A DNA stretch of 45,443 nt from an uncultured archaeon (GCA_963787445.1 CAWBCT010000011.1:1-45443), one strand, 5' to 3'. Numbered from the stretch's first letter, positions 151-40,082 are shown. Notes: generated from the sequence alone by a model not told the origin. Numbers and translations: made by a program.

Positions 151-248
151 TGCATCGTTTAGCCTGTATTTTGCCAGATATTTAAGCGTACTTATCCCGG
201 ACGGCACCGGTTGCCACTAACCTAAAATATGTTGATTTTTGCAACGGG

Positions 249-845
249 CTAGTTTGCGTCTGCAAGAACCTGACCGTTGACCAGGTCCCCATTCTTTTCC
301 TTAACTTTGTTGTTTATGTAGCCGGTGCAAGTGTCTATGACTGACCTCTCCAGTTTTCCCTCCTGTACCTCTTGCCAGCGAGAAAACTTCTGTACAAGGG
401 GACCCCTCTTCAGATCAAACATGTAGGTTATCACTTTGCGGTGTTGCCAATCCTGTCCTGGCTGCGTGCTTATCACGCCGATTACCTTGCCCTCTACGAT
501 AGGCTTTACAAACGGTTCCTTGATGCCCGGATCAAGCTTGGGATCCATCATTCTGGCTGGCTGTTCAAGCCGGTAGGCAACCTCACACTTATTATCATCT
601 GCAACCATCAGCTTTAGAGAGCTGAAAATGCTCATGTAGTTCGACTCGTTTATTACGATTACGCCCCTGACCTCTTCCTGGCTAGCCTGCGCGGACGGGG
701 AGTCCCGGGCAACCTGCTGCGAGCTTCCTGACGACTGGCTGCATCCTGCCATCATGGCCGCAACCGCGAAAGTGGTTGTGGCGACACCCGCTCTGAGTGC
801 GTTCTTCAGCACCTGATTGCCTTTTTGAGCTGTTTTTGTAGACAT
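249..845 (-). CDS. Hypothetical exported protein, possibly a lipoprotein
   Basis: 198 aa. Basic N-terminus, hydrophobic stretch ending in lipobox-like MMAGC, then a Ser/Gln-rich linker. Confidence 0.65.
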   Translation of the reverse strand: MSTKTAQKGNQVLKNALRAGVATTTFAVAAMMAGCSQSSGSSQQVARDSPSAQASQEEVRGVIVINESNYMSIFSSLKLMVADDNKCEVAYRLEQPARMMDPKLDPGIKEPFVKPIVEGKVIGVISTQPGQDWQHRKVITYMFDLKRGPLVQKFSRWQEVQEGKLERSVIDTCTGYINNKVKEKNGDLVNGQVLADAN

Positions 846-993
846 CTTCTCTACCCGATAATAATCGTAAACTTACACCTTTAAAAGGCTTGCTGAAGCC
901 GGACCCGGGCTTAAAAAGGATGTTTTTCCATACCCATGGATGCGAATTCTGTCGAGGGAGAAACTCTTTCCTAACTCTTGTCCAGGGCCTTCT

Positions 994-1170
994 TCAGCGC
1001 CGCCGCGCCCTTTGCCAGCGCGTTCTCGAGTGGATGAGCTCCTCCTCTAGGGTTGTCATGTTTACCATGAAACCGTTGAGGCACTCCAGGCAGATGTACT
1101 TGTTGGGATAGGCAGGATTAGCAGTCATTTTCTTCGGACTCTTGCCGCAGACAATGCACTTCTTTGACAT
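994..1170 (-). CDS. Small C4 zinc-finger protein
   Basis: CIVC...CLEC motif pair and Arg-rich C-terminus. Start probably MSKK at 1170 (track starts at 1203). Confidence 0.6.
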   Translation of the reverse strand: MSKKCIVCGKSPKKMTANPAYPNKYICLECLNGFMVNMTTLEEELIHSRTRWQRARRR

Positions 1171-1234
1171 CATATCACAGGTATGGACCTTGGGGGCCTC
1201 CACAGAGGCCCATGTGGCGGTCCATTACAATCAT

Positions 1235-1495
1235 TTATCTTCTCTTTGCCGGCGTCTTCCTGAATGAGGCGTAGATGACTACAACGCCGATTATCGCGGC
1301 TATTACGCTCCCGACCTCGATTATGACGGAGTTGTAGCACATCTGTGCTCCAGTGCCTCCAACCAGCGAGGTGAAGAACATGGAGATCTGCCCTCCGATA
1401 GAGTTGCACGACACAGACGTGTTGTAGCTCTGCCAGAAGAGCGCTATTCCAATTAGAAAGACCAGTATTCCAGTTATTGTTTCCCATGCGTTCAT
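1235..1495 (-). CDS. Small membrane protein with 2 TM helices and a Cys pair in the loop
   Basis: 86 aa with two hydrophobic segments and a basic C-terminus. Operon-like with 1507..1740. Confidence 0.7.
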   Translation of the reverse strand: MNAWETITGILVFLIGIALFWQSYNTSVSCNSIGGQISMFFTSLVGGTGAQMCYNSVIIEVGSVIAAIIGVVVIYASFRKTPAKRR

Positions 1496-1506
1496 ACTAT
1501 TACCAA

Positions 1507-2108: not shown

Positions 2109-2241
2109 CCCGATCACGTAACCCTATTTTTGAATAAGATATTTAAGCGTACTGTCTAGGCTGTCGTTGGAAAAATGAAACCGCATAGCTTATAAATCAG
2201 GAAAAACAAAGGTGAACCTGCAATTCAACCGCTAGAAGACC

Positions 2242-3960: not shown

Positions 3961-3964
3961 TTTA

Positions 3965-5107
3965 TCAATCCCTTTTTTCCTCAGTTAAAGTTCCTGGGGC
4001 GTTCGGAAGTTCAATGTGCTGCGATTGCAAAGAGGTATCGGAGAGGGCGTAAACTCCAAATTTTCCATCCGGTTCGTATCCGAGAGGTATGTATCCCGCA
4101 TCCAGTGCAGTCATGCACTCGTTGACATACCTGGTCAGCACCGCCTTATTTTTGAACTCCTTTTCGCCGGTATCCTTGGTCAGGTAGAAACGCGCTCCGA
4201 TTGCAACCACTTCGCATACGTAATCAACTATCGTGCCGGGAAGGATTCCGCCCTCGAGCGTTTTTCTGGCTACCTCCTGGACAAGGGCCCGTTGTGCAAA
4301 CCGCCTTTTGTTCCAGTACATGTCGTGCCTTGAGTAAAGCGCCACATTCCTCTCAGCGCGCTCCGCCTCCTGATGCTTGTCGTTTCCGAACCTCACCTCT
4401 TTGACAATGCTCTTCACATTTTCAAATGAGGTCGACTGGTAGACCTTCCAGGAAGGCAATGGCACCGTGTTCGGAGAATCAAAACTGAGCGACCTTATCT
4501 TTTTCAGGATGGCGATGAAACCTGCTTTCTGCTCCGCCGAAAGCCCGGAAATGGCGTCTTCCAGGTACCCGCTCCTGAACCGCTGCAGGTCGTTATCAAG
4601 CGTGAGCATGTCCTTTAGGAGGGCAAGCTGCCCGGGCTCGCTGATTGTGGTTTTGGCCAGCGCGGTAACGGTGCTGCCAAACTCTTTTGCCAGCTTCTCA
4701 TCCGTTGTGATTGTGCAGATCTCGGTTTTTGTATTAAGCCCACCGTAGGTCCCGTCCCTTATCTTTCGGGCTACCTTCGGGCCGTCAGTCTCTTCATTAA
4801 AAGCGAACAGCCCCAGGTTTCCGTCCAGCAGTATCAGGTCGTACTTCCTGGAAGAGATAAATTTTTCTATCTCTTCGGGGCTCTTTGGCGCGTCAACGTC
4901 GACCTCCAGGCCTTGAAGCCTGCTTAGCCTCCGGATCAGGAGGGTTGAGATGGTGCTCCGGGTTGCCCTCTCATCTTCAACGAGAAGTATGCTTTTTGTC
5001 TTCAGCGTGGGTTGCGCCTCGGCTCTCCTGGCTTCGGCGAGCTGCCCGCCCGCATCCGAAGCTTTCTTTTTGAATGAGACTGGTTCGGCCACGGTTATCA
5101 CAAACAA
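3965..5107 (-). CDS. Response-regulator receiver (CheY-like) domain protein with unknown C-terminal domain
   Basis: ILLVEDE acidic pair, YDLILLDGNL phospho-acceptor Asp, DGPKVARKIR, conserved T (CTITT) and K (LAK). Confidence 0.8.
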   Translation of the reverse strand: MFVITVAEPVSFKKKASDAGGQLAEARRAEAQPTLKTKSILLVEDERATRSTISTLLIRRLSRLQGLEVDVDAPKSPEEIEKFISSRKYDLILLDGNLGLFAFNEETDGPKVARKIRDGTYGGLNTKTEICTITTDEKLAKEFGSTVTALAKTTISEPGQLALLKDMLTLDNDLQRFRSGYLEDAISGLSAEQKAGFIAILKKIRSLSFDSPNTVPLPSWKVYQSTSFENVKSIVKEVRFGNDKHQEAERAERNVALYSRHDMYWNKRRFAQRALVQEVARKTLEGGILPGTIVDYVCEVVAIGARFYLTKDTGEKEFKNKAVLTRYVNECMTALDAGYIPLGYEPDGKFGVYALSDTSLQSQHIELPNAPGTLTEEKRD

Positions 5108-5150
5108 TCTTATTTTTCACATATATATGGCTTGCCTGCGTCTTTTTGTG

Positions 5151-6242: not shown

Positions 6243-6965
6243 CTAATGCCTTAGGGTTTCCTCAACAATCTTGGCAACCAGTTTGCTATGGTCGCTTAGG
6301 AACTTGTCAAGCGCAGCGGCAACGGCGCGGTTCCCCCGGGAATATAGGATCTCCTTGACAGAAGGCCTTTGGTTGTCTGCTGTCAAATAGTGAAGATGGA
6401 GGATGTGCGGGTCACCCAGTCTTATGATGGCCAGCTGCACGGACTCATCTCCGGACTCGGCCAGTTCGTGGATGGAGTTCTTGCCCCTCAGGTCCCCCTC
6501 TTCCAGAAGCCAGATCCTTTTCTTATCAAGCATCTCCATCTTTATATTCTGGTTCCCGTTGGCGGCAACCGTTTGAATTACTGTCCGGGCATCGTGGTCC
6601 CTTAGTATTAGGGTCTTCGGGTGCTTCAAGAGCTCCAAATGCACGGCTTCGCTGTTGCCCTGGGCCAGTATGTGGGCGACGGACATCCCGTCGAAGCCCG
6701 AAGCTGTCATGCCCAAGATAGGCTCATCAGAAGCCATTGCAACCTTAACCCGCTCCGAGCCGCGGACCGCAAGCTCGTGGGCAACGCCCCAGTTATTATA
6801 GGTCTCAAGGGTTAGATTGTATTTTACCACTTCATTTGTCTTTAGTACACTGATGCCGTACCTTTCTGCGCGCGCATTTATCTCCAGTGCCAGCCTCGTC
6901 ACCTCTGCTGGCTCGAGTGCCTGTCGTTTTGACCTGAAAGGCCTGGCGTAAAGAGTTGCTGCCAT
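6243..6965 (-). CDS. Ankyrin-repeat-like protein
   Basis: About 35-aa periodic repeats GVAHELAVRG, SVAHILAQG, TVIQTVAANG, NSIHELAESG. Likely ATG at 6965 with TATA at about 6989-6996. Confidence 0.7.
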   Translation of the reverse strand: MAATLYARPFRSKRQALEPAEVTRLALEINARAERYGISVLKTNEVVKYNLTLETYNNWGVAHELAVRGSERVKVAMASDEPILGMTASGFDGMSVAHILAQGNSEAVHLELLKHPKTLILRDHDARTVIQTVAANGNQNIKMEMLDKKRIWLLEEGDLRGKNSIHELAESGDESVQLAIIRLGDPHILHLHYLTADNQRPSVKEILYSRGNRAVAAALDKFLSDHSKLVAKIVEETLRH

Positions 6966-7056
6966 GCTCAAACAGGTGTTTTGCCAGATATATAATCCTA
7001 TTGGCTCTCTGTTTTGTTGGTAGTTCTTAAATATCTGAACGAAGGCATGAATATAC

Positions 7057-7788
7057 GTGGAACACGCTACTACTCTTGCAAGTCGGGCAATAGCGATGAA
7101 GTCAGTCATTGCGGCAGGGTGGAGGACCATTGACTTTCAGCGCGGGCTTGACCGGGCCCTGACTGAAGTGCTAAGGCCGACGGACCTGCGGTTCTTCCAA
7201 TCTGTGAGGGCGCACGAAAAGCGTGCTTTTCCGGAGTTCAGGGAAAGGAACTGCATCGCAGAAGGAGACTGTGACTACTTGTACTTCGCACCGAGCTGGC
7301 ATTTCGGAAAGAGCCTGCTCACTGAAGAGACGGTTCAGGACATAAAGCAAAATAAGAAGCAACTGCTCAGCGTGGGTTCCGGCAGGGCGTATCTTGAGCG
7401 CACGCTCGTAGGCGCATTCGGAATCGACAGAAAACAGATAACGCTTTCTGATTTGAACCCAATAATGCCTCGCGGGTTCAGAAGTTTCACCTTTGATATG
7501 AGAGGAGCATGGCCTGATTTCGGGAATCGCTTTGATTTTGTGATCTTTCCCGAATCGCTGTTGGCGATAATCAACACCAACAGCGCAGAGGAGCACGAGA
7601 GGCTAAAGGCGCTCATCGAGAAGACATTCAGGGTAGTCAAGCCGGGCGGGGAGATAAGGATGAGCGGCCATAATATTCCCGAGCAGCATATTGAGCAGCT
7701 GGAGGCATGGCTTGCCGACCGTCATCATGGGACAGAGCTTGAATACAACCGATTCCTTATGGTCATCAGGAAGCCGGCCAATGAATGA
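7057..7788 (+). CDS. Class I SAM-dependent methyltransferase-like protein
   Basis: LLSVGSGRAYLE motif I, ITLSDL, FDFVIFPES and VVKPGGEI. Confidence 0.8.
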   Translation: MEHATTLASRAIAMKSVIAAGWRTIDFQRGLDRALTEVLRPTDLRFFQSVRAHEKRAFPEFRERNCIAEGDCDYLYFAPSWHFGKSLLTEETVQDIKQNKKQLLSVGSGRAYLERTLVGAFGIDRKQITLSDLNPIMPRGFRSFTFDMRGAWPDFGNRFDFVIFPESLLAIINTNSAEEHERLKALIEKTFRVVKPGGEIRMSGHNIPEQHIEQLEAWLADRHHGTELEYNRFLMVIRKPANE

Positions 7789-9242: not shown

Positions 9243-9328
9243 AGAAAGGCACGTTTATATACTTTTCTTGCCATAAATTTAATACTTGTTACGTCTAGAT
9301 TGAGTCATCAAGTTTTAACGGTGTTCAT

Positions 9329-11888: not shown

Positions 11889-11949
11889 CCCGGAACCCTA
11901 AAAGGTCTATATATCTGGAAAAACCACTCCTACCTGTGGTTTTACGGTA

Positions 11950-12432
11950 ATGTTTAGGACTCCCCGCAGCGATCGGGAGGACAGCCTGGAGCAGAGGATT
12001 GAGCAGTCGAAAACAGCGGTCAGGTCTTTGGTCAAGAGCTTCGGAGAGAGGATCGAGGAGCTGGGCAAGGGACGGAAGGAGCTTGAAGACGACAAGAAGC
12101 GCAGCCAGATAAACTTCCTTACGACCTGCAGCCAGCTTGAGATGTTTTCCAGATCCCTGTCTGAGACCAGCGAGGCTGTTTTTGAGAAAAACCCAACTGA
12201 AGCCGCCAACGCCATGAAAATGGTTTTTGGGGTTTATGATCACTATATCAAAAATACCAGTGATTTTGAACGGGTGCTTCCAGGGATTGCCGATTATGAT
12301 AATTTGCAGGCCCTGACTTCAAAATATCTGGAAGGCTGGAATACCATACTGGACAAGATGGGCGAGGCAAGCGAGACTACCAGAATGGATGCGCTAAGGG
12401 CCCTGCTCAGGAAGAAGAAGCTGGAAGAGTAG
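11950..12432 (+). CDS. Hypothetical helical/coiled-coil protein
   Basis: 160 aa, charged and helical, with promoter CTATATATCTGGAAAAA at 11907. Confidence 0.65.
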   Translation: MFRTPRSDREDSLEQRIEQSKTAVRSLVKSFGERIEELGKGRKELEDDKKRSQINFLTTCSQLEMFSRSLSETSEAVFEKNPTEAANAMKMVFGVYDHYIKNTSDFERVLPGIADYDNLQALTSKYLEGWNTILDKMGEASETTRMDALRALLRKKKLEE

Positions 12433-19430: not shown

Positions 19431-19807
19431 CTAAGCGAGACCGGGTTGGCCTTGCCCTTGTCATCCTCAAGCACGACTGCGGTCCCGTAGGCCAGGACCT
19501 CGGTCATTATGTTGCCGATGTCAGCGGAGTCGAACTGCATCCCGATGACTGCATTTGCACCCATCTCTGTCGCGTCCGCGACCATCCGGTCTATCGCATT
19601 CTCCCTTGCATCAGTAAGCATCTTTGTGTACTCGTGAATCTCGCCGCCCACCAGGGAGCGCAGGCTCGCGGCGATGTTGCCGCCTATCCCCCTGCTTCTC
19701 ACCACTATGCCGAATGTGGGGCCCAGGGTCTTGACTATCTTCTTCCCTGAGACGTAGTTGGTTGTCACCACGGCAAAGCCGCTCTTAAGGTTGGAATCCA
19801 CGGGCAT
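19427..19807 (-). CDS. YbjQ/UPF0145 family protein
   Basis: LVGGEIHEYT, AREnAIDRM...GANAVIG and EVLAYGTAV. Confidence 0.93.
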   Translation of the reverse strand: MPVDSNLKSGFAVVTTNYVSGKKIVKTLGPTFGIVVRSRGIGGNIAASLRSLVGGEIHEYTKMLTDARENAIDRMVADATEMGANAVIGMQFDSADIGNIMTEVLAYGTAVVLEDDKGKANPVSLR

Positions 19808-20347: not shown

Positions 20348-20415
20348 GGAAGACCGGTATCGGAGTGTGATTTTCCACATATATATTGCTTTTTATATCT
20401 CAGCTTCGCAATAAT

Positions 20416-21350: not shown

Positions 21351-21459
21351 GTTATCAATACTTTTCATCCCTGTTCAGATTTATATGCCTTCGCGGGAAT
21401 GCGGACGCGGCCCTGCTTTCAGAAACCTTAAATATCGTTGCGTGCAAAGTAATCAGTGT

Positions 21460-21576
21460 GCCGGGGTCGCCTAGTGGTACAGGCACAAGCATTGGCTTAC
21501 TTGCACTAAATGGCGGCAGGTTGCTAACCTGTTCGGCTGGAAACGGCCTCTACGAGTCCGATTCTCGTCCCCGGCG
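21460..21576 (+). tRNA. tRNA-Ser(GCT) with a 31-nt intron at position 20/21 (21479..21509)
   Basis: GCCGGGG/CCCCGGC acceptor, GCAGG-TTGCTAA-CCTGT anticodon arm, long variable arm and G73. BHB motif: AGTG/CACT central helix with GTA and AAA bulges. Confidence 0.92.
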
Positions 21577-21595
21577 CGTTATGTTGGATGATTTC

Positions 21596-22396: not shown

Positions 22397-22526
22397 ACAC
22401 CGCATTCAAAACCAAAGTGCCGGGCAACCTATATAAAATAGGGATTGCTAACTGTTGCAGAAGGCAAATCCCTTTTATATCTATCTGTAGATATACAATT
22501 ATAGTTTAACTTTAAACCATGATTAC

Positions 22527-23243
22527 ATGAAGAAAAAGGTCAACAAAAACGCAAAGACTGTAATCAAGGTAGAGCACATCGGGAAGATCTACAGGACCAA
22601 GAAGATGGAGTATCTCGCAATCAAGGAGATGTCTCTGTCGGTGAAGAAGGGCGAGTTCGTCTCTATTCTTGGGCCTTCCGGCAGCGGGAAGACGACGCTC
22701 ATGAACCTGATCGGGACTCTCGACCGTCCCACCTCGGGCCAGATCTTCATCGACGGCATAGACACCTCCAGCCTCAAGGAGAACGAGCTCTCCATCCTGC
22801 GCAACAGGAAGATCGGGTTCATCTTCCAGTCCTACAACCTTGTCCCGTACCTCAACGTCCTCGAGAACGTCACGCTTCCGCTCATGGTGGACAAGCTCGA
22901 CAACCACGAGAACATCGAGAAGGGGAGGAGGCTGCTCGAGGAGGTCGGCCTTGGCCAGAAGCTCACCAAGATGCCCAACGAGCTCAGCGGCGGGGAGCAG
23001 CAGAGGGTCGCCATAGTGAGGGCGTTGATAAACAATCCCCCGATAGTGCTCGCCGACGAGCCCACCGGAAACCTCGACTCAAAGACTTCCGACGCGGTGA
23101 TGCAGATCCTCGTCCGCATGGGGAAGGAGATGGACACGACCATAGTCATGGTCACCCACGAGCAGGAGATCGCGAGCTTCTCGGAGAGGAGCATTTACGT
23201 TAAAGACGGTGTTATAGAACGAGATATAAAAGTGAGAAAATGA
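22527..23243 (+). CDS. ABC transporter ATPase, LolD/MacB type
   Basis: GPSGSGKT, IGFIFQSYNL, LSGGEQQRVAIVRA, LADEPTGNLDS and MVTH. Confidence 0.96.
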   Translation: MKKKVNKNAKTVIKVEHIGKIYRTKKMEYLAIKEMSLSVKKGEFVSILGPSGSGKTTLMNLIGTLDRPTSGQIFIDGIDTSSLKENELSILRNRKIGFIFQSYNLVPYLNVLENVTLPLMVDKLDNHENIEKGRRLLEEVGLGQKLTKMPNELSGGEQQRVAIVRALINNPPIVLADEPTGNLDSKTSDAVMQILVRMGKEMDTTIVMVTHEQEIASFSERSIYVKDGVIERDIKVRK

Positions 23244-24946: not shown

Positions 24947-26295
24947 AGCTGAACGACACCCTTTGGCTTGGCACCAAGGGGATCTCACAACGGAAGCTGC
25001 GAACCGGGCTTAGCATACTCACCATAGTCATCGGCGTCGCGGCGATAGTCGCCCTGATCTCCCTTGTCGCTGGCATCAGCGCCAGCATCTCGAACGAGCT
25101 CTCGAGCATCGGCCCGACTACGCTTTACCTCACGCCGAAGACCGGCATCTTCACCGTGGCGGACGTGGCCGAGATTGGTTCTCTGCCCAATGTCAGTGCA
25201 GTAATACCGCTGATACGCTTCACCGCCAACGTCTCCGTAATCGGGCAGTCATCGAGCACTGCCGCAACCATAATAGGGGTTGACAGCGCGGAGGTCTCCA
25301 ACACCATCGGCAGCGTCAATCTTTATGAAGGGTCGCTGTACAACGACTCCGCCCTCCCCTACGCGGTCGTAGGCCACAATGTCGCATTTCCAGGCACAGG
25401 GCAGCTCACCTCCTCCGTCCAGCTCGACGAGCCACTTTACCTCACCGAGCACACCGGAGCGGCCTCGCGAAGCATAACGCTCATTCCTGAGGGCATACTC
25501 AACACCTACGGCTCGTCCCTCTTCATCACCCCTGACAGCTCGGTGTTCATCTCCCTGCAGGAGGCTGAGCTTCTCACTGGCAAGCAGTCCTACAGTGTCC
25601 TCCTGGTCCAGGCAAACAACGCGAGCTCCGTCAACGCGCTCGACTCCCTCCTGACCCAGGTCTACGGGAGCTCTGCATCAATAATTTCAGTCCAGGAACT
25701 CGCCTCTACCGTCTCATCCATAACAGGCTCCATCGGCCTGCTCCTCGGCTCGATCGCGGGAATCTCGCTCCTGGTCGCAGGGATAAGCATACTCAGCATA
25801 ATGATGGTCTCGGTCACAGAGCGCACTCATGAGATAGGCATCCTCAAGTCCATCGGCTTCAAGAAGAACGACATCCTTATCCTCTTCCTCACCGAGGCGG
25901 TGATAATAGGCCTCGCCGGTGGAGTGATCGGGGTGGTCGTGGGTGGAGGCGGCGCCTACCTATTGCCAAGCCTTCTCTCTGCCGGTGCAGCCAGGTCCAC
26001 TACAGCAACTCCGTCCGCAAGCACGGGCTCTGGTACTTTCGTTGCCGGAGGTGGTGGCGGAGGCAGCGGCGGCTTCGGCGGAGGTGCCGCAAGGTCAGGG
26101 GCTGGCAGCTCCACCGCATTGGCGGCAAGCCCATCCTCGTCGTCAACAAGCTCAATCAGCCTCACGCCGATAGTCAGCCCGGAGATAATCGTCGTGGCGA
26201 TAATAATAGCGGTGCTGGTGAGCGTGGTCTCAAGCCTCTATCCCGCCTGGAAGGCCTCCACCGTCGACCCGATAACCGCGCTCAGGTCCGAGTAG
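24943..26295 (+). CDS. ABC transporter permease, MacB/FtsX family
   Basis: RKLRTGLSILTIVIGVAAIV, SVTERTHEIGILKSIG and YPAWKASTVDPITALRSE. Confidence 0.95.
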   Translation: MKLNDTLWLGTKGISQRKLRTGLSILTIVIGVAAIVALISLVAGISASISNELSSIGPTTLYLTPKTGIFTVADVAEIGSLPNVSAVIPLIRFTANVSVIGQSSSTAATIIGVDSAEVSNTIGSVNLYEGSLYNDSALPYAVVGHNVAFPGTGQLTSSVQLDEPLYLTEHTGAASRSITLIPEGILNTYGSSLFITPDSSVFISLQEAELLTGKQSYSVLLVQANNASSVNALDSLLTQVYGSSASIISVQELASTVSSITGSIGLLLGSIAGISLLVAGISILSIMMVSVTERTHEIGILKSIGFKKNDILILFLTEAVIIGLAGGVIGVVVGGGGAYLLPSLLSAGAARSTTATPSASTGSGTFVAGGGGGGSGGFGGGAARSGAGSSTALAASPSSSSTSSISLTPIVSPEIIVVAIIIAVLVSVVSSLYPAWKASTVDPITALRSE

Positions 26296-26361
26296 CTATC
26301 CGTTCGTTTGCACGAAAACCATTTATATCAGCAAAAACCTCATTGCTAAGGGCACATTGGG

Positions 26362-26931
26362 ATGCAACTCAAACACAATACGGCCAGGGACGCATGCCTG
26401 CTGGGCAGCGCTGTTCGCAACGTCCCTGAGGCCATGACCGACATGACTAACCTAAGAGTCATCCCGTATCTTATTCACTTTTCCAGGCTCGGGATAGTTC
26501 CTGAAATTTTAGATGTCAGCCATCATTATTTCAAGATCGTCAAGGCCGAGGGCCCTCGCCTGAGCCAGTTCATAAACAAGCACAGCGAAGAGGAGGTCTC
26601 CCAGGTGTACAGAAGGATGGGGTCCAACATAGCGTACATTGAAAAACTCGGAGTATGCCACGCCGACCTCCACTGCGACAACGTGATAGTACAGGATGGA
26701 AAACCGTTGATAATTGATTGGGAGGATGCACAGCTTGTGGGTCGGGAATTTCCAAGCGAGGTTCCCATGTTCTACGGCGGGGATGCAAACCACTTCCTTG
26801 GCTCATATAATGTTTCTGCACGGCCCAGAATGCTATTCATTAGCGCCTACAGGGAAGAGATGAAGAGACCTGTGCCTTCACTTGACGAGATAACAAACTT
26901 CATTCCGCTGCTCAGAGCCGCAGGAGCCTAG
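26362..26931 (+). CDS. Protein kinase-like (Bud32/RIO/APH-type) phosphotransferase
   Basis: GVCHADLHCDNVIV catalytic loop and LIIDWED. The N-lobe is short or divergent. Confidence 0.75.
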   Translation: MQLKHNTARDACLLGSAVRNVPEAMTDMTNLRVIPYLIHFSRLGIVPEILDVSHHYFKIVKAEGPRLSQFINKHSEEEVSQVYRRMGSNIAYIEKLGVCHADLHCDNVIVQDGKPLIIDWEDAQLVGREFPSEVPMFYGGDANHFLGSYNVSARPRMLFISAYREEMKRPVPSLDEITNFIPLLRAAGA

Positions 26932-26976
26932 TACAAAACGCATAAATATCATAAAAAGAAGAACCTTTTTATTATC

Positions 26977-27303
26977 ATGACCAGAACTAGCACTGCCGCC
27001 CGAAAGCCAATGAGAGAGCGGAGGAGCATGAGAGAGATTGCAACGGCGATTGGGCTCGCTAGGGAGATCTTCCGATCAGAGTATCCAAATCTGATGGAAA
27101 AAGAGAAGTTTCATAGTTTCAAGGAGCTGTCAGAATTGGGTAGCAAGAAAGCAGCTTACGTAGGAGGCTGGCTCTTCTTCAGGCGAAAGGAGACCCTTTT
27201 TGAGAGCTTTTTTGGGGAACGCAGGGAGATCTGGGTAAGGATCCATCCTGCCAGCAGGAAGGAGATGGCAAAGCTCAGCAGCCTGCTCCGAAACGGGAGT
27301 TAG
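26977..27303 (+). CDS. Hypothetical basic protein
   Basis: 108-aa ORF with its own TATA element at 26941. Confidence 0.6.
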   Translation: MTRTSTAARKPMRERRSMREIATAIGLAREIFRSEYPNLMEKEKFHSFKELSELGSKKAAYVGGWLFFRRKETLFESFFGERREIWVRIHPASRKEMAKLSSLLRNGS

Positions 27304-27423
27304 CTTTTTTAACAGAGCAGCTTTATATATCTAGAACTGCATAGTATATTGCGACCTTTCAGGCAGTGAAAGATATATGTCGGAGCTTCAGCTTCGGCGC
27401 CAGGATACTTAAAAGATGATAAC

Positions 27424-27876
27424 ATGACAACACAAAAGATAGTGCACAGATGCTCTTTGACAACCGCGCAGAAGCGGGGAATTAACGAGAAGATGTTTGG
27501 GGCCATAGACAAGGGCGACTTTGAGGGCTACATGAGGGCCGTTTGGAGCGGGGCCGACATCCACGCGAGATTGGCCAGCAGAAGGAATATGACAACGCTC
27601 ATGGTCGCCGCCAGAGGGGGTTACATAAAGATTGCAAACGACCTTAACAGCAGGGGGGTGAAGCTAAATGCTGCTGACCATGACGGCCTTACCGCTGAAG
27701 AGCATGCTGCAGCGCATCCGCACTTGAGGGTGCTTCTGGTGAGCGGATTCAGGCTCTCGATGGGAGACGCGCTCCGCAACGGATTTCACCATCTCACAAC
27801 GGAAGCTGAGAAGCTCAAGGCTACCCGCAGGCACATAGATTACAGGATGGCCCACAGGCACGACAGCGAGAGATAA
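27424..27876 (+). CDS. Ankyrin repeat protein
   Basis: GADIHA...TTLMVAARGGYIKIANDL..RGVKLNAADHDGLTAEEHA. Confidence 0.85.
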   Translation: MTTQKIVHRCSLTTAQKRGINEKMFGAIDKGDFEGYMRAVWSGADIHARLASRRNMTTLMVAARGGYIKIANDLNSRGVKLNAADHDGLTAEEHAAAHPHLRVLLVSGFRLSMGDALRNGFHHLTTEAEKLKATRRHIDYRMAHRHDSER

Positions 27877-27884
27877 GTTGAACA

Positions 27885-27959
27885 CGGACATGGCGGGATT
27901 TGAACCCGCAACCCCCGGCTCCGCAAGCCGGTGCGCTATCCAAGTTACGCCACATGTCC
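27885..27959 (-). tRNA. tRNA-Arg(GCG)
   Basis: GGACATG/CATGTCC acceptor, CCGGC-TTGCGGA-GCCGG anticodon arm and TTCAAAT T loop. Confidence 0.96.
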
Positions 27960-28044
27960 TTATGACCAATCTTTATATACTTTTGTTATTAAAGAGTTAA
28001 CGTTTGCTGGCAATCCTACGACTGCGAGCATGGCTTGTGATAGA

Positions 28045-28209
28045 ATGACGAACAAAGGAAAGGTATGCACCTCATGCGGAAGGCTCACGGACAAGTACGT
28101 CGCCTTCAAGTGCCCTTCGTGCAACGAGCAGGAGATCTTCAGATGCGAGGAGTGCAGGCTGAACCACACCAAGTACCGCTGCAAGAAGTGCGGATTTGAG
28201 GGTCCGTGA
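28045..28209 (+). CDS. Zn-ribbon RNA-binding protein (COG2888/DUF1610)
   Basis: CTSCG...FKCPSC...RCEECR...YRCKKCGFEGP, with conserved linkage to aEF1beta. Confidence 0.9.
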   Translation: MTNKGKVCTSCGRLTDKYVAFKCPSCNEQEIFRCEECRLNHTKYRCKKCGFEGP

Positions 28210-28451
28210 TGGGAAACGTAGCCACTATATTTAAGGTCTATATGGAAGCCGGCCAGGAGGCCAGCGTCCAGGAGGCCGTGAAGAAGTTCAACCCCAAGAG
28301 CATGCAGCTCGAGGAGGTGGGTTTCGGGATAAAGGTGCTGAAGGTCATGTTCGTCCACACCGATGAGGAGGGCAGCACGACCTACGAGGACATGCTCAAG
28401 GGCGTGAAGGGCGTCAACGAAGTGGAAGTGCAGGAGCAGACGCTTCTCTGA
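28209..28451 (+). CDS. ef1b: Translation elongation factor 1-beta
   Basis: MGNVATIFKVY...EEVGFGIKVL...GVNEVEV. Confidence 0.92.
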   Translation: MGNVATIFKVYMEAGQEASVQEAVKKFNPKSMQLEEVGFGIKVLKVMFVHTDEEGSTTYEDMLKGVKGVNEVEVQEQTLL

Positions 28452-28486
28452 TTCTTTTATACTTTTGCTAAGTAAAATAATCTGAT

Positions 28487-28559
28487 AGCCCCGTAGTCTA
28501 GTGGTCAAGGACGGCGGGCTCTGAACCCGTTAACCCCAGTTCGAATCTGGGCGGGGCTA
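28487..28559 (+). tRNA. tRNA-Gln(CTG)
   Basis: AGCCCCG/CGGGGCT acceptor with the archaeal A1-U72 pair, anticodon loop CTCTGAA and T loop TTCGAAT. Confidence 0.96.
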
Positions 28560-29387
28560 TTGAACTTATATATGTTTGGCTAAAATAGCAAATTTAAGAT
28601 CGTATTGTTGCTATTAGCGCCTTTCCTAACCACTTGTTCCTGTCTTCGTTTCCAAGATTCCCTGCATAATCTATTTTATCCACGGTCTCGCATTTTACAT
28701 CTAATTTTTTAAAAAGCCACGCAATATCTTCTGGTTCTTTGAAATTAGGTAGGTACAAGGCGATATGCTTAGGATTCGCATCAACAAGTTTTCTAAAGAC
28801 ATCTCTTATTCTTTCTAATGCGCCGTCTTTAATTCCGTCAAGCGTTTGTGTGTCAATAGGGACATAGTTGTGGAAAAGAAGTGCATCAGCACCTTTGATC
28901 AATTCAATCTGATCTTCTATTTTACCAACAATCCAGTTTAAATTAGGGGTTCCTAAATTTGTTGACTGATAGTTTGCCTCAAAGAGTAACCGATGTTGAT
29001 GTACTTGAATAGGATCTATATCTACCATAGAATAACTGCCGCCAGTTCCAAGACGTCGTGCAACATGCAGACTGGAGTCCCAGCCAGTATTGCCTATACA
29101 CCCCTCAACTATTCTTGAATTTTTTCTTAGAATGCGTCTATCTACTAGAAGTTCCACATAACTGTAAGGATTAGTTCTACGAGATTTGCTCTTCTGGGAA
29201 CTATTGTTCATGAATATCAAGATTATTGGTGCTTTTCAGATTTATAAGCGTTTAAAGATTGGGACTGTTGTCTAATTTTACTTAATCTAACAAGAATAGT
29301 ATATCCCAATAAACACCTTTTCTGAACAGCCTAACAAGCTATGTGCGGATAAACCCAACGACGACGTTGTCTTAAGGCGGGGCTATT
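28550..29387. mobile_element. Degraded AT-rich islet at the tRNA-Gln 3' end
   Basis: GGCGGGGCTATT occurs at 28550..28561 (tRNA 3' end) and again at 29376..29387, with a visibly AT-rich interior. Confidence 0.5.
28594..29211 (-). CDS. Hypothetical protein, possibly a divergent SAM methyltransferase fold
   Basis: RIVEGCIG, YSMVDIDP and WIVGKIED resemble class I MTase motifs. AT-rich codons. Confidence 0.55.
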   Translation of the reverse strand: MNNSSQKSKSRRTNPYSYVELLVDRRILRKNSRIVEGCIGNTGWDSSLHVARRLGTGGSYSMVDIDPIQVHQHRLLFEANYQSTNLGTPNLNWIVGKIEDQIELIKGADALLFHNYVPIDTQTLDGIKDGALERIRDVFRKLVDANPKHIALYLPNFKEPEDIAWLFKKLDVKCETVDKIDYAGNLGNEDRNKWLGKALIATIRS

Positions 29388-29492
29388 TCAACATTATGTT
29401 GGACTTATACAAAACTGTAGTAATCGAAGTACGATGAATCTGACAAGGAATTTTTTTCTAATTAAGTATAAATATCTGAAAAAGGTAATGAA

Positions 29493-29615
29493 ATGTCAAT
29501 GACGATCTTGAAAAGTGGTTCAGCATCGCGAGGCAGTTCTTACTATTTTACAAATCCGATAAAAGTTATAAAAGCTCTTTTAAGAAAAGTAAACACAGGT
29601 AAGCCAACAGCTTAA
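29493..29615 (+). CDS. Putative 40-aa small protein
   Basis: MSMTILKSGSASRGSSYYFTNPIKVIKALLRKVNTGKPTA behind TATAAATATCTGAAAAA at 29467. Confidence 0.3.
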   Translation: MSMTILKSGSASRGSSYYFTNPIKVIKALLRKVNTGKPTA

Positions 29616-29737
29616 CAAGCTATATGTAGCAGTGAACTTTAGGCTGGAAAGGCTTGGCGGCTGGGCACAGCTGAGGGGTTATAAAATAAAAGGGCACAGG
29701 GCCCGAATTAAAATAAAGACGTCAGGGTCTTCAGCCG

Positions 29738-32163: not shown

Positions 32164-33066
32164 ATGGTTAAATGGCCGAGTGGTGCAAAGTTTTCCGATT
32201 CCAAGGCTCAGTCGGCGATGGAGTACCTGATGACCTACGGCTGGTCCATACTCATCATCGCCGTGGTGCTCGCCGCGCTCTTCGAGCTTGGGGTCTTTGG
32301 CAACGGTGCCCTTTCACACAGAGCGCAGCCCGGAGGCTGCCGGGTGAGCAGGCCTGGAGGCGCCCAGAGCACGACCAACCTCAACCTTCAGGGCATCTGC
32401 AACAACGAGCCGCCGGAGTATGCGGCTCAGTTCAATGGGCAGAGCAGCAGTATTAATGTTGGGAGCAGCCCGAGCTTGCTTGCAAATGTAATCACGATAG
32501 CAGCGTGGGTAAAAGTTACAGGAGGCACTGCGGTCGTTCAACCATTGATTTTATTTGGGGGGTCTGGTTACTATCTCACCGGCGGCGGCGGAAATCCCCA
32601 GATTATAGATTTGAATGGCAACAACTACAGATACTTCTTTAACAGTCCGGTGAACCCGGATGATGGAAACTGGCACTTCGTCGTGGTTGAGCTGACCGGG
32701 AACGGACAGTTCGATATTGCAAATTCCATGATCTACGTAGACGGGCAGAGCGAAGCACCAGACGGTGTGGTAGACACGGGTTTGCCACCAGTAAGATCCG
32801 GACCGGTTTCTATGGGGGGCCCTGGCTCACATCTTAATGGATACCTTTCAAACGTCCAGATCTACAATACCGACCTTTCCTCAAACGACGTCCTAATCCT
32901 TTACCAGGAGGGTATCAGCGGCACTCCGATTCTCGGCGATGGGCTTGTAAGCTGGTGGCCGCTTAATGGGGATGTGAACGACTACTCCGGGGAGTACAAC
33001 AACGGCATGGCGACCAACGTGGTCTTCACGACCTTGTGGACCAGCGGATATACCGCCCCGCATTAG
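32164..33066 (+). CDS. LamG-like jellyroll protein with class III (prepilin-type) signal peptide
   Basis: KAQ/SAMEYLMTYGWSILIIAVV prepilin-type motif, ITIAAWVK, WHFVVV, IYVDG, SNVQIYN and LVSWWPLNG. Confidence 0.9.
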   Translation: MVKWPSGAKFSDSKAQSAMEYLMTYGWSILIIAVVLAALFELGVFGNGALSHRAQPGGCRVSRPGGAQSTTNLNLQGICNNEPPEYAAQFNGQSSSINVGSSPSLLANVITIAAWVKVTGGTAVVQPLILFGGSGYYLTGGGGNPQIIDLNGNNYRYFFNSPVNPDDGNWHFVVVELTGNGQFDIANSMIYVDGQSEAPDGVVDTGLPPVRSGPVSMGGPGSHLNGYLSNVQIYNTDLSSNDVLILYQEGISGTPILGDGLVSWWPLNGDVNDYSGEYNNGMATNVVFTTLWTSGYTAPH

Positions 33067-34540: not shown

Positions 34541-34678
34541 CTGATCACTGGAACCTCTGACTCATTTAAGCTTTTATAGACGAAGTCGAGATAGACAGCT
34601 GACGATATGGTCTGACGTCGAGAGCAGGATAAATAGGCTTAAATATCTAGAAACTGGAGTAGTATAGAGAATGATATA

Positions 34679-35341
34679 ATGACTACAACTGTCCGCAAAG
34701 CACCATCAGTCATGCCTAAACTTAGGGGTAACTCTGAAGATGCAAGTACTTTTACAATCTTGAAGCGTAACCTTGATTCATTCCAGGTGGATTCGCCAAT
34801 CTTGAACCACGAAGTAATTAGGGGCTTCATTCGTCCGATAGAGGCGCGCGCGGGTTACGAGCTCGCGAAGCGGCTGATGGAAGACGGAAGCAACGACCTG
34901 CATGCCTTTGCCGCGAAATCGGACGCCGTCTGCGTCAAGATAGAGGACCTTCTTGAGGTCATGTACGTGCCGAAGTTCATCACCCTTATGGAGATGGAGG
35001 CTCAACGGCTCGACAGACCAAACAACATTCAGCTGCTTTCGGGAGACCAAACTAATGTCTTCATGGGCCCCCAGCGCCAACCCCACCTTTCGGTAAAGCG
35101 GATGCTGGATTTTGTATTGAATGCGGATGGGGAAGAAAAGCTGGACCTGTTGATGGGATCTGAAAGGTATCAGGTGGCTGTAATGGAGTACTCCAAGGAG
35201 CTCCTAATAAACTCCAAGTACAGCTTTGATGAATATTTCAGGAAACTCAGCAGGATTACGGAGTTTGACCACACGAAAGAGCTCGTGGATGGACTTAGGA
35301 ACATGTACGCTTTTGAGATGGGCGTCAAGCTTCCCGAGTAG
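34679..35341 (+). CDS. Hypothetical protein
   Basis: 220 aa with promoter CTTAAATATCTAGAAAC at 34638. Confidence 0.65.
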   Translation: MTTTVRKAPSVMPKLRGNSEDASTFTILKRNLDSFQVDSPILNHEVIRGFIRPIEARAGYELAKRLMEDGSNDLHAFAAKSDAVCVKIEDLLEVMYVPKFITLMEMEAQRLDRPNNIQLLSGDQTNVFMGPQRQPHLSVKRMLDFVLNADGEEKLDLLMGSERYQVAVMEYSKELLINSKYSFDEYFRKLSRITEFDHTKELVDGLRNMYAFEMGVKLPE

Positions 35342-38004: not shown

Positions 38005-38123
38005 GAATACACTTGCTGGTCAGCTACTTATGCAGGAAGTAAGGCTATAAACATTGCGACCAGCCCCGACGCTTTGACGTAGCCATATCCCTTAATAAAG
38101 TTGTATATCCCAAATGTGATAGT

Positions 38124-39374
38124 ATGGCGGCTAAGAAGGCGGTGGCGAAGGACGCGGACAGCGCAATCCTAGAGAAGGTCCTCAAGAACGAGATTCCTCT
38201 CCACAAGCTCGAGGAGCACGTGACTCCGGAGAAGGCAGCCGAGATTAGGCGAAAGTTTCTCACCCAGAAGACCGGCCAAAAGCTCCCGGGCATCGGCTCC
38301 GCCACCATAGACTACTCAAAGATACTCAACAAGAACACAGAGAACGTCATCGGAGCAGTCCAGATCCCGGTGGGAATTGCAGGTCCGCTGAAGATAAACG
38401 GCGAATATGCAAAAGGGGAGTTCTATGTTCCGATGGGAACCACTGAAGGCGCTTTGATTGCCAGCGCCACCAGGGGAATGAAGAGTGTGAACCTGAGCGG
38501 AGGGGCCAATGTCACTATTATATCTGATTCAATGGCTCGGGCGCCTTTGTTCGAGCTCGACTCTGTAGCTGAGGCGAAGGCTTTCGTTCATTGGGTCGCG
38601 AAGGAGAGGAGCGATATCATAAAGGCCGCTGAGGCAACCACCAAGCACGGCAAGCTCGTTGAGATTATGCCATTCATAGTCGGGAACAACGTGTGGCTCC
38701 GCTTCTCCTACAACACGGGAGACGCCATGGGCATGAACATGGCAACCATTGCCTCAGAGGCCGCGTGCACATTCATAACAGGGACCTACACCAAGGCAAG
38801 GCTGGTCGCGGTAAGCGGGAACATGTGCTCAGACAAGAAGGAGTCCTACGTGAACGAGCTCCTTGGCAGGGGCAAGAACGTGGTCGCCGACGCGGTAATA
38901 AAGGGGGACGTGCTTGAGGATATACTGAAAAGCAATGCCTCAGCCATATCGAACGTAAACCTGAAGAAGAACCTGCTTGGAAGCTCGAGGGCGGGGAGCA
39001 GCAAGCACAACAGCCACTTCGCAAACATAATCGCGGCCATCTTCCTAGCAACAGGGCAGGACCCAGCGCAGGTAGTTGAAAGCAGCAGCGGATACACCTG
39101 GACTGAGGTTAGGGGAGAGGACCTTTACATTTCAGTGACACTTCCATCGCTTGAGATTGGCACAGTCGGCGGTGGAACGGCATTGGCAACCCAATCAGAG
39201 GCTCTTTCTATAATGGGCGTGGATGGCGGCTCAGAAACTCCGGGAAACAACTCAAAGAAGTTCGCCGAGATAATTGCGGCCAGCGTCCTTGCTGGTGAAC
39301 TGAATCTTCTTGCAGCACTTGCTTCAAGAGAATTAGGAAAAGCGCACTCGCAGCTCGGGAGAAACAAGAAATAA
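38124..39374 (+). CDS. hmgA: Hydroxymethylglutaryl-CoA reductase, class I (NADPH)
   Basis: [42 protein letters not shown] and the C-terminal catalytic His. Confidence 0.97.
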
Positions 39375-39412
39375 AAATTTGTTGTCGGAAATACTATGGA
39401 GTGCACTCCATG

Positions 39413-39441
39413 AAATAAAAAGAGGCAGCAAAGCTGCCTCC
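39413..39441 (-). terminator. GC hairpin followed by a U-tract on the minus strand
   Basis: GAGGCAGC-AAA-GCTGCCTC (39422..39440) followed on the minus strand by TTTTTATTT. Confidence 0.4.
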
Positions 39442-39644
39442 ATTTTGGGTGTGCCAAAATTAATTGGCAGTATTATTGTAGTCGGAAAATATATATAGCT
39501 TCCTTTACTTATAGTGCATTCCCTTTTTGGGAAAGAGAAACCTATTTATAGTTTGGTGAAAAATGTTAATCACCGGTAAGCGTAGGTCGAACGCTATACA
39601 AATAGACCAAGAAGGCAGCGGCTGTCTCTGTTCTGGGTGGTGGA

Positions 39645-40082
39645 ATGGATGGAAGAAAAGGTGGTTGGGAAAAGGCCATGGAACAGCTGGAAAGGGCAAT
39701 GCGCAAGGAGTTACGGAACGAGGCTAAGGACATAGGGATCAGCACGAAGCAGTACAGGGCAATGTGGAAGGCGTCGTACGCCCTCCTGTCCGAACTGTGC
39801 GAGCCGACCCCGAAGCTCGTGAAGGACTCAATACGCATGGTTGGCAACTTCGCAAGGCTAGTTGAGCATTGCAGGCTCATCGAGCGGGAGTGCTACGTCG
39901 AGGAGAAGATTGAGGCGCGGCATCAGGTGGGTTGCGAGGGTGTCATTGCCACCAGCATATCTGCGGTATCGAAGGAGGCGGAGTCGCCTCCTTCCCCAGC
40001 CAAACTTCCATCCATCTCACCAATCAAAGCTATCGTAAGATGGTTTTGGGGCATCACGGAGAGGTTTTATATATGTGAATAA
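39645..40082 (+). CDS. Hypothetical protein
   Basis: 145 aa with GGTGG SD before the ATG. Confidence 0.55.
   Translation: MDGRKGGWEKAMEQLERAMRKELRNEAKDIGISTKQYRAMWKASYALLSELCEPTPKLVKDSIRMVGNFARLVEHCRLIERECYVEEKIEARHQVGCEGVIATSISAVSKEAESPPSPAKLPSISPIKAIVRWFWGITERFYICE

Follow-up and report, generated by a model that had tools for sequence, protein, structure and literature searches.

An element in fixed register behind the TATA box defines a promoter class tied to orphan genes in an uncultured archaeon

A minor class of promoters, marked by a short element that follows the TATA box in one fixed register, is present in the genome of this uncultured archaeon, where it is tied to orphan genes and to certain places in the genome, and it recurs in other species of the genus. 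The element had been predicted from a single stretch of DNA of 45,443 nucleotides (the window, in what follows). A large part of the gene content of DPANN genomes consists of orphan genes, on whose control, to our knowledge, nothing is known. Our comparison of promoter sequences suggests that the newest genes of this archaeon might share one transcriptional switch.

Results

The original prediction listed 15 copies of the element in the window, all of which are present where they had been placed, nine on the plus strand and six as reverse complements, and all of which lie 25 to 101 nt upstream of an in-frame ORF start on the matching strand (Table 1), with site 27322..27337 being 101 nt from its ORF 27424-27876. 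Thirteen of these 15 sites are members of the class defined below. The other two are 29467, whose 40-aa ORF is missing from the gene list used, and 7026, whose weak BRE/TATA score of 6.6 falls under the cut-off of 8 applied to promoters. The LLR of 3.9 at site 34638 lies in a bin where the observed count equals the null. Several of the quoted sites were also clustered independently by a repeat search, in families of 21–26 nt (D9, D10, D14 and D17). Promoters 6979..6996 and 7026..7042 are arranged back to back, and the class promoter at 20371..20386, with its ORF, adjoins the SRP RNA gene.

Table 1. Promoters of the predicted class in the window, and two non-class promoters.
Feature	Position	Strand	Gene behind	BRE/TATA score	LLR	TATA start
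Class promoter	169..186	-	182 aa, crosses the window start onto contig C14; no Pfam or PHROG family	9.4	8.0	185
Class promoter	2189..2206	+	ORF 2248-2970, 240 aa; no Pfam or PHROG match	9.0	10.4	
Class promoter	5113..5128	-	ORF 3965-5101, 378 aa	12.9	7.7	
Class promoter	6979..6996	-	ORF 6243-6965, 240 aa, orphan	11.5	8.7	
Class-like, borderline promoter	7026..7042	+	ORF 7057/7096-7788	6.6	3.3	
Class promoter	11907..11923	+	ORF 11950-12432, 160 aa, orphan; no Pfam or PHROG match	10.3	7.7	
Class promoter	20371..20386	-	ORF 19886-20347, 153 aa, orphan	12.2	8.9	
Class promoter	21372..21386	-	ORF 20694-21350, 218 aa, orphan	11.4	5.7	
Class promoter	26321..26337	+	ORF 26362-26931, 189 aa	11.8	7.5	
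Class promoter	26941..26957	+	ORF 26977-27303, 108 aa, orphan	11.1	5.6	
Class promoter	27322..27337	+	ORF 27424-27876, 150 aa, orphan	11.9	4.8	
Class promoter	29233..29248	-	ORF 28594-29220, 208 aa, orphan; atypical codon use (dicodon score -41)	12.0	8.5	
Class promoter	29467..29483	+	ORF 29493-29615, 40 aa	9.7	6.6	
Borderline class promoter	34638..34654	+	ORF 34679-35341, 220 aa, orphan	11.5	3.9	
Class promoter	40067..40082	+	ORF 40106-40312, 68 aa, orphan	10.1	7.0	
Non-class (major type) promoter	9249..9277	+	S19e operon	10.8	-8.2	9255
Non-class promoter	20385..20413	+	SRP RNA	10.5	-2.8	

Genes and their starts were taken from a simple in-house gene caller, a BRE/TATA profile was obtained by EM from 585 upstream regions, and an unsupervised two-class mixture was fitted, in 427 non-redundant promoters, to the bases that follow the TATA box from +7 to +22. 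The mixture recovers the quoted element as its minor class, with the consensus T-[C/G]-[T/A]-G-[A/G]-AAA(A)..C-A, and its log-likelihood gain is 143, compared to 45.5±3.9 (maximum 53.9) in a null of 40 column shuffles. Forty-five promoters are strong members (LLR>4) where 4.4 are expected and, together with the gain of the mixture, this excess statistically supports a distinct promoter subclass. Members with LLR>7 number 21 against 0.2 expected and those with LLR 4-7 number 24 against 4.2, while the bin of LLR 1.8-4 holds 16 promoters against 15.3. The commonest class triplets behind TATA are CTG, CAG, CTA and GTG, and A occupies positions +11 to +14 in 60–78% of the members. The rule as first worded, tested as STG/CAG/CTAG at +8 to +10 plus AAAA within +10 to +18, has both its parts at 21 of 529 gene-linked BRE/TATA sites, whereas 5.9 would be expected if the two were independent (Fisher p=5.6e-9). 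When the mixture was retrained without contigs C11 and C14, the class was still recovered (gain of 75.7 vs 45.8±5.3), and the retrained model assigned to it 25/57 of the held-out promoters and 60/370 of those used for training (p=8e-6).

The register of the element is fixed. In 29 of the 427 promoters its downstream part attains 7 bits at offset 0, compared to 0–2 promoters at each of the 18 other offsets, and of its 1742 hits genome-wide, 35 are placed exactly behind a TATA box, where about one is estimated by chance. Among the 52 TATA sites with LLR>4, 45 represent the top-scoring promoter of a called gene, a property by which the signature improves the calling of promoters and start codons, and 2/52 fall within gene bodies; for the remaining TATA-like sites these figures are 366/970 and 134/970, respectively. 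Class and other promoters have similar BRE/TATA scores (medians of 10.6 and 10.2) and do not differ as to leaderless or Shine-Dalgarno type. Immediately ahead of the TATA box, however, the class prefers C over T, and C at -1, a position not used in defining the class, is found in 51% of class promoters vs 23% of others (p=0.0008). Part of the motif is not a mark of the class, as promoters picked by BRE/TATA alone generally favor T at +9 (59%) and seldom have C at +10 (7%), and T at +9 is also seen in three relatives when the consensus is taken over all promoters. The motif is hence partly class-specific, with its ATC-T part being generic. The same applies to the SRP promoter, said to share the ATC part alone: it does carry T-C-T without the G and the A-run, but ATC-T is shared by promoters in general.

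Housekeeping and stable-RNA promoters in the window, at which the full element had not been noticed, are indeed non-class, with LLR below 1 throughout. These include the promoters of RpoL, S19e, L39e, GT-C, Sec61beta and the YbjQ/eIF2beta unit, and those of PNP, ABC, SRP RNA, RNase P RNA and the tRNAs. The PNP promoter at 21428, divergent from the class promoter at 21372..21386, has an LLR of -8.3. In agreement with the prediction, genes without a Pfam match at E<=1e-4, here called orphans, stand behind 34/45 class promoters, compared to 67/148 of the others, 148 being the number scanned out of 366 non-class promoters (p=0.0006). The link is not exclusive, given that 11 of the 45 strong members precede Pfam-annotated genes, including an ornithine/arginine decarboxylase. 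Dicodon scores are lower in class genes (median 0.152 vs 0.359; p=2e-5). Searches with ORF 6243-6965 and ORF 19886-20347 returned only self-matches among 5.8 billion proteins, and in 30 related genomes the former has no full-length relative and one weak partial match, in G005.

Several gene labels originally attached to these promoters needed correction. No Pfam ankyrin match was obtained at 6243-7130 or 27424-27876, both labeled as ankyrin. The receiver label of ORF 3965-5101 has some basis in a Response_reg match of 27 bits, which is weak and under the cut-off of 30.2, and the methyltransferase label of ORF 7057/7096-7788 likewise finds a match, if a weak one (E=8e-4). ORF 26362-26931, labeled as a kinase, is a RIO/APH-like kinase fragment according to Pfam, and is distantly paralogous to the RIO1 gene at 17937; in a search with the RIO1 kinase locus, the nearest named locus was that of a Micrarchaeota MAG at 45% identity, and no close syntenic loci were found. 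Of the housekeeping labels, that of a histone has no histone family match among the 63 ORFs scanned, and ARAGORN calls a tRNA-Arg and a tRNA-Gln but no tRNA-Ser.

The class is concentrated in one stretch of about 79 kb (C14 and C11), which holds 22 class promoters among 57, compared to 23/370 elsewhere. Outside C11 and C14 the link to orphans is not significant (14/23 vs 50/117; p=0.17), and class membership is predicted better by genomic place than by orphan status. The class clusters in variable stretches, where the assembly splits into strain variants. Genes of mobile type are found in the 79 kb, namely an integrase, reverse-transcriptase fragments and a HerA/VirB4-like ATPase, and so is an AbiE-like pair adjoining a duplicated tRNA half. 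The class genes themselves are single genes among housekeeping genes, and form no blocks with hallmark genes. A mis-binned contig was ruled out, as the 14 window housekeeping genes tested are single-copy in the bin apart from strain-variant overlaps, and so was an effect of the contig itself, with housekeeping promoters on the same contig being non-class. A provirus on C14 was also considered, and the long one-strand gene block in question is an A/V-type ATP synthase operon. A look-up of RNA runs for positions 19800-29700 of the window returned none, and contigs from four DNA runs, all of one study, yielded near-identical fragments at low depth.

Scored with the model derived from this genome, two further species of the genus show the class, with LLR>4 at 12/228 promoters in G006 and at 15/327 in G005 (null 2.3±1.4). 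In G006, 11 of the 12 class genes are without a tblastn match in this genome, compared to 86/210 of other genes (p=0.0006), and in G005 the same is true for 12 of 15 vs 91/302 (p=0.00015). The link to species-specific genes is thus repeated in both species, even if the three genomes of the genus are related and the replication is not fully independent. The species that keep the element span a G+C content of 31% to 53%. Other genera show little of the class (11/152 vs 5.1±2.0 in G013; 13/308 vs 9.9±2.8 in G026), and in these two genomes class promoters have no link to orphans. The methyltransferase promoter at site 7026 (G000) and that of its orthologue in G004 share 15 consecutive identical bases, spanning the TATA box plus CTGAA, between flanks that have diverged. 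Conservation of class membership is weak at Pfam-annotated housekeeping genes, whose orthologues in relatives keep the class in 1 of 8 pairs; the median LLR in these eight pairs is -2.7 vs -6.2 in 80 control pairs (one-sided p=0.017).

An alternative TFB or TBP, or a dedicated factor, had been proposed to act behind the class, with the genes perhaps being co-expressed upon contact with a host. The genome, 82% complete, has one TFB gene only (the single gene matched by PF00382, with two cyclin repeats, at C5:576040-576565), which speaks against an alternative TFB. Two single-domain TBP genes do exist, but among the five relatives compared, all of them kin, no relation between TBP gene number and the class was apparent: G026 has two TBP genes and no class excess, and G013 has one and a small excess. 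Throughout the order of this archaeon, a two-repeat TBP seems to be lacking, with one or two single-domain TBPs encoded instead.

Discussion

On balance we lean, if only slightly, towards the element genuinely extending the archaeal core promoter, fixed in register and read together with the TATA box. A promoter of this kind would consist of an 8-nt TATA box with [C/G]-[T/A]-G-[A/G]-AAA(A) behind it, always in the same register, and the element would sit at about -20 to -12 if transcripts start 27–29 nt after the first TATA base, as we assume because the distances to start codons point there. Start codons, in fact, peak at 28–30 nt (leaderless) and at 34–40 nt past the first TATA base. The TATA box of the SRP RNA promoter starts 29 nt ahead of the first base of the RNA. 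The element would mark about 10% of promoters both here and in two or more further species of the genus, and the genes it serves would mainly be species-specific orphans located in variable stretches between conserved housekeeping genes. Since TFB contacts DNA behind the TATA box, the putative reader may be a member of the TBP-TFB-DNA complex, or else it could be a small factor docking on that complex. With either type of reader, the newest genes would receive a common transcriptional input, unlike housekeeping genes. That the element is bound by a protein, who this reader might be, and that the genes are co-regulated, is what we infer from the patterns described above. That the extended TATA box is recognized by the second TBP paralogue, acting as a homodimer or in a pair with the first one, seems rather improbable; should this be so, a duplicated half-TBP would represent a separate transcription channel for the fast-turnover orphans of the genus. 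In a literature search of limited extent, neither promoters of Micrarchaeota nor single-domain TBPs serving as the sole TBP were the subject of any paper.

A different explanation, which we consider unlikely and yet the most serious of the competitors, is that the orphans derive from one pool of mobile elements, such as viruses or plasmids of the lineage, whose promoters carry this extension, in which case a dedicated reader in the host would not be needed. The class is in fact strongest at genes that have no relatives and whose codon use is atypical, it clusters where the assembly splits into strain variants, and the mobile-type genes and the AbiE-like pair are in the same 79 kb; there is also a precedent in SIRV1/2, where GTC is found behind TATA boxes, according to PMC5569661. 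On the other hand, among the 63 ORFs of C14 and the window that were scanned, no orphan matches PHROG, the four matches being to the integrase, two reverse-transcriptase fragments and a Pfam-annotated phosphatase, and the two orphans tested have no relative on any contig of the protein collection. Class genes are, in addition, scattered singly between housekeeping genes and not grouped in hallmark-gene blocks. The element is also kept across the wide range of G+C content and at an orthologous chromosomal gene, which argues for a reader encoded by the host.

We also find little reason to believe that the bases behind the TATA box are a classical operator, bound by a free-standing repressor or activator that would block or aid the recruitment of the polymerase. 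The region between TATA box and start is the usual place of archaeal repressor sites, of which PMC2396416 names examples, and the set of class genes could make sense as a regulon. However, the element occurs at a single offset, is short, has a consensus without dyad symmetry by inspection, and is not enriched on its own, as only 35 of its genome-wide hits lie behind a TATA box. The receiver-domain protein encoded by ORF 3965-5101 was rejected as the regulator, as it has no full-length relative in 30 related genomes, where a single weak match (residues 69-133) is found in G006, even though two relatives show the class.

The view that there is no class, and that the motif is a generic promoter flavor of the genome or arises from its local base composition, is already largely refuted, and we regard it as very improbable. 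The bases at +9 and +10 common to all promoters, the same T at +9 in three relatives, and the agreement of the LLR 1.8-4 bin with the null would favor it, but they are opposed by the large gain over column shuffles that keep composition, the excess of promoters at LLR>4 (45 vs 4.4), the fixed register, and the non-class housekeeping promoters of the same contig. Lastly, that the promoters are alike through paralogy of their genes or through one copied repeat is hardly credible. A small family exists in which all members have class promoters (C14_4936, the gene of 169-186, with C14_5892 and C5_328772; E=4e-5 and 3e-6), but BLASTP of 21 strict-rule proteins gave no other pair at E<=0.01, phmmer of 111 proteins of C11 and C14 against 1072 proteins added one further class-gene pair (C14_35779 and the neighboring short ORF C14_35397; E=1.6e-10) plus the kinase-like fragment with RIO1, and DNA similarity between sites stops after 21–26 nt.

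If the preferred reading, that of a core promoter extension recognized together with TATA, is true, a signature of about 20 nt would predict the promoters of the flexible gene set in three species of very different base composition. The same signature could serve as a DNA probe for finding the reading protein in a lineage difficult to cultivate, and the system would make it possible to test how archaeal transcription takes in genes that are newly arrived or newborn.

With regard to known systems, the promoters studied here resemble the canonical archaeal BRE/TATA in that an 8-nt TATA box is accompanied by an A-rich BRE at -5/-4; the EM profile reads A at -5/-4 and T-W-W-A-W-A, and all class sites score at least 8 with the exception of 7026. 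What goes beyond the canonical form, in about 10% of promoters, is a run of about nine extra conserved bases that directly follows the TATA box. The BREd, the downstream TFIIB recognition element of eukaryotes, has the consensus RTDKKKK and lies directly 3' of TATA, where TFIIB/TFB contacts DNA; we know of no role for it as a marker of a gene class. Our element resembles it in position, as it begins at the base after the 8-nt TATA box, and the T-D of that consensus agrees with the generic preference for T at +9 and against C at +10, but a class-specific A-run is found where the BREd has G/T.

In haloarchaea, which have several TFB and TBP genes, specificity came from BRE/TATA and not from downstream bases, according to PMC2396416. 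The likeness lies in the idea that genes are assigned to regulatory groups by their core promoter and not by an operator further away; the genome analyzed here differs in having one TFB and two single-domain TBPs. In SIRV1/SIRV2, GTC is found behind TATA (Kessler et al. 2004, as described in PMC5569661), in one set of promoters that use the host TBP/TFB, and was proposed to be a set-specific cis-regulatory element. The two systems share a short element directly 3' of TATA that marks one promoter set. Confinement to promoters of viruses or mobile elements was not observed here, with no viral family at the orphan ORFs among the 63 scanned. Unlike the viral GTC, the element described here consists of CTG, GTG or CAG plus an A-run, and it is chromosomal, sitting among the housekeeping genes of a member of the Micrarchaeota.

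A statistically distinct promoter class

All 15 strings quoted in the original prediction, which had proposed a promoter class extended behind the TATA box, were found where they had been placed, each upstream of an ORF on the correct strand. Genes and start codons were called with a purpose-built dicodon model, on which every gene-based count given here depends, and redundant contig copies were masked, leaving 961 kb for analysis. Under the strict rule proposed for the element (STG, CAG or CTAG at +8 to +10 from the TATA start, plus AAAA within +10 to +18), trinucleotide and A-run co-occur in 21 of 529 gene-linked sites, with 5.9 expected (p=5.6e-9). The class was also recovered by a two-component mixture blind to this rule, fitted to the +7 to +22 segment of all 427 promoters scoring >=8 for BRE/TATA: a minor component of ~15% (T7, C/G8, T/A9, G10, A/G11, A12-14, a15, c17, A18) emerged with a log-likelihood gain of 143, compared to 45.5±3.9 in 40 column shuffles. 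When promoters were ranked by log-odds score (LLR, class versus major type), 21 exceeded 7 where a shuffled null gave 0.2, 24 fell between 4 and 7 (expected 4.2), and 16 between 1.8 and 4 (expected 15.3); we took LLR>4 (n=45) as the real class and left those last 16 out of later contrasts. Thirteen of the 15 quoted sites are members; the site at 29467 has a class-level score and fronts a 40-aa ORF, and that at 7026 is borderline.

Part of the proposed motif is nevertheless generic. The EM profile of 585 upstream regions consists of an A-rich BRE at -5/-4 plus a TATA box, and among 281 promoters picked by BRE/TATA alone T occupies +9 in 59% and C occupies +10 in just 7%; because these preferences are common to promoters chosen in this way, and T at +9 is seen in relatives too, only the remainder of the motif, as defined by the mixture, is specific to the class. 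Genome-wide, translation starts in two modes. Distances of start codons from the first TATA base peak at 28-30 nt, which implies leaderless mRNAs, and then at 34-40 nt; many other genes have a GGTGAT ribosome-binding site, a strong motif at -9 to -4.

Genomic place and gene content

The archaeal bin that holds the window (contig C11) comprises 19 contigs and 1.05 Mb, at 82% completeness and 5.4% contamination. Of the named relatives found, a Candidatus Micrarchaeota MAG comes nearest, with 45% identity over RIO1 kinase. Several small contigs of the bin are strain-variant overlaps; the window's ends overlap other contigs in this manner, including C18 at 98.6%. Since the left end reverse-complements contig C14, the two contigs form one ~79 kb stretch. 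This stretch is rich in class promoters (22/57 versus 23/370 elsewhere, p=5e-10), and a second cluster lies at 85-102 kb of contig C13. A mixture trained without C11 and C14 still recovers the class (gain 75.7 versus 45.8±5.3), and calls it in 25/57 held-out promoters versus 60/370 training promoters (p=8e-6).

The element was predicted to favour orphan genes, here those without a Pfam match at E<=1e-4, and this is what we found: 34/45 class genes are orphans versus 67/148 non-class genes (p=0.0006). The scan covered all 61 promoters with class posterior >0.5, the non-class promoters of C11 and C14 minus two with unscanned ORFs, and a random 125 of 364 scanned-set candidates outside these contigs, so the contrast samples the non-class side and leaves out 218 further non-class promoters. 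The excess is clear inside C11 and C14 (20/22 versus 17/31, p=0.006) and not significant outside (14/23 versus 50/117, p=0.17); genomic place correlates with the class more strongly than does orphan status. The original prediction had also seen no full copy of the element at housekeeping promoters. In the window, non-class promoters indeed serve RpoL, the S19e operon, L39e, GT-C, Sec61beta, the YbjQ/eIF2beta unit, PNP, the ABC transporter, the SRP and RNase P RNAs and the tRNAs; elsewhere there are exceptions, among them the genes for an ornithine/arginine decarboxylase, a DEAD-box helicase, a radical SAM protein and GatD.

Class genes have lower dicodon scores (median 0.152 versus 0.359, p=2e-5), and hydropathy analysis of 21 strict-rule proteins revealed no strongly hydrophobic segments. 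Two class orphans had no relative among 5.8 billion proteins, and two class genes searched in 30 related genomes had no full-length relative and one weak partial match each. In the first 40 kb, class genes have no DNA match in ten same-genus genomes, save a methyltransferase-like ORF matched in the closest relative only, while their housekeeping neighbours do match at DNA level.

Other features of the window and genome

Features with coordinates are collected in the table below. The interval bounded by tRNA-Arg(CCG) and its half-copy resembles a small element that has integrated into this tRNA, and a gene pair paralogous to the AbiEii-like gene and its neighbour is present on contig C10. The integrase locus on C14 looks like a broken retroelement. 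In the ATP synthase operon, the C-terminal domain of the A subunit is divided between two ORFs; this division could be real, or it could come from a frameshift or an assembly error. The Laminin_G_3 gene belongs to a paralogous family with a common N-terminal region. The C14 copy of the receiver-domain gene is broken across two frames.

Coordinates of features in the window (C11) and on other contigs of the bin
Feature	Position	Locus position	Remarks
Left contig end	C11:1-5143		Strain variant; reverse complement of C14:1-5142, 99.8% identity
Right contig end	C11:34788-45443		Strain variant; C3, 96.8% identity
tRNA-Arg(CCG)	C11:9167-9243 (-)		Intact
tRNA-Arg(CCG) half-copy	C11:7791-7836		46 nt of 3' half, 97.8% identical
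Interval with tRNA and half-copy	C11:7790-9243		1.3 kb between the two
AbiEii-like gene	C11:8466-9128
Neighbour of AbiEii-like gene	C11:7870-8478
Laminin_G_3 protein gene	C11:32164-33066		First ~250 nt (32205-32448) repeated at several C5/C13 places, 69-82% identity, and in all genus genomes
HerA/VirB4/TraG-like ATPase	C11:42746-44374		Near strain-variable right contig end; promoter at 42774, borderline class, LLR 3.7
Tyrosine integrase with reverse-transcriptase ORFs	C14:32484-35430	L061:15484-18430	Integrase beside two adjoining ORFs matching consecutive parts of one reverse transcriptase
Catalytic A subunit in the A/V-type ATP synthase operon	C14:26816-28461	L061:9816-11461	Read as two ORFs (437 aa, 108 aa)
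Single-domain TBP gene	C5:289003-289251 (-)	L003:1468-1803
Single-domain TBP gene	C5:463731-463979 (+)	L004:1447-1764

The class in related genomes

Five relatives went through the identical pipeline, four with 0.36-0.40 Mb each and one with 27 kb. All were scored with the model derived from the present genome, and the genus genomes, being kin, are not fully independent. The promoter of the orthologous methyltransferase in G004 shares 15 identical bases over the TATA box plus CTGAA, between diverged flanks.

Class promoters in related genomes ("no hit", no tblastn match at E<=1e-5 in the present genome, itself 82% complete)
Genome	Relation	Class promoters	Null	No hit, class versus non-class
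G004	Closest relative, 27 kb only	3/17
G005	Same genus, 31% G+C	15/327 (LLR>4)	2.3±1.4	12/15 versus 91/302, p=0.00015
G006	Same genus	18/228 (LLR>1.76)	7.0±2.4	11/12 (LLR>4) versus 86/210, p=0.0006
G013	Other genus	11/152	5.1±2.0	2/5 versus 50/141, no link
G026	Other family	13/308	9.9±2.8	3/5 versus 139/295, no link

How the element might be read

Several other explanations were considered. A contig artefact was rejected, as the window's housekeeping promoters are non-class. The class is not visibly viral either: no orphan ORF among the 63 scanned on C14 and in the window matched a PHROG family. Paralogy of the class genes was rejected as well, with just one three-member family found, and so was a repeat family or cassette boundary, for DNA likeness between class sites stops after 21-26 nt.

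A further alternative is a free operator. The downstream part of the element, however, keeps a fixed register: 29/427 promoters have it at offset 0, and 18 other offsets yield 0-2 promoters apiece. It has 1742 hits genome-wide, 35 of them exactly behind a TATA box. Of 52 TATA sites with LLR>4, 45 rank as the best promoter for a called gene, versus 366/970 other TATA-like sites, and C is found at -1, a position that played no part in defining the class, in 51% of class promoters versus 23% of others. Fixed register, shortness, no evident symmetry and conservation across the genus together favour an extension of the core promoter over a free operator, and the evidence thus points to an element that would be recognised jointly with the TATA box.

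Alternative basal factors had been suggested as readers. An alternative TFB finds no support, as a single TFB gene is present in this 82%-complete genome. As to TBP, PF00352 matches two separate ORFs (111 and 105 aa, 51% identical, one TBP domain each) and no two-repeat TBP was found in the present genome, but across the small set of genomes compared, the class is not tied to how many TBP genes are present. Among 31 genomes of the order, each has one or two TBP matches (a 97%-complete genome has just one), all but two of them in open frames of 100-146 aa. Our literature search returned no paper describing one or two single-domain TBPs without a two-repeat TBP; the one paper found on such proteins (PMC3597702, section 24) reports them only alongside full-length TBPs, in Thermococcales and Halobacteria. 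The identity of the reading protein, co-regulation of the class genes and a link to a host are matters that we infer. TFB contacts DNA behind the TATA box, according to PMC7289017, and SIRV1/2, as described in PMC5569661, provide a precedent for a set-specific element at the same place behind the TATA box.
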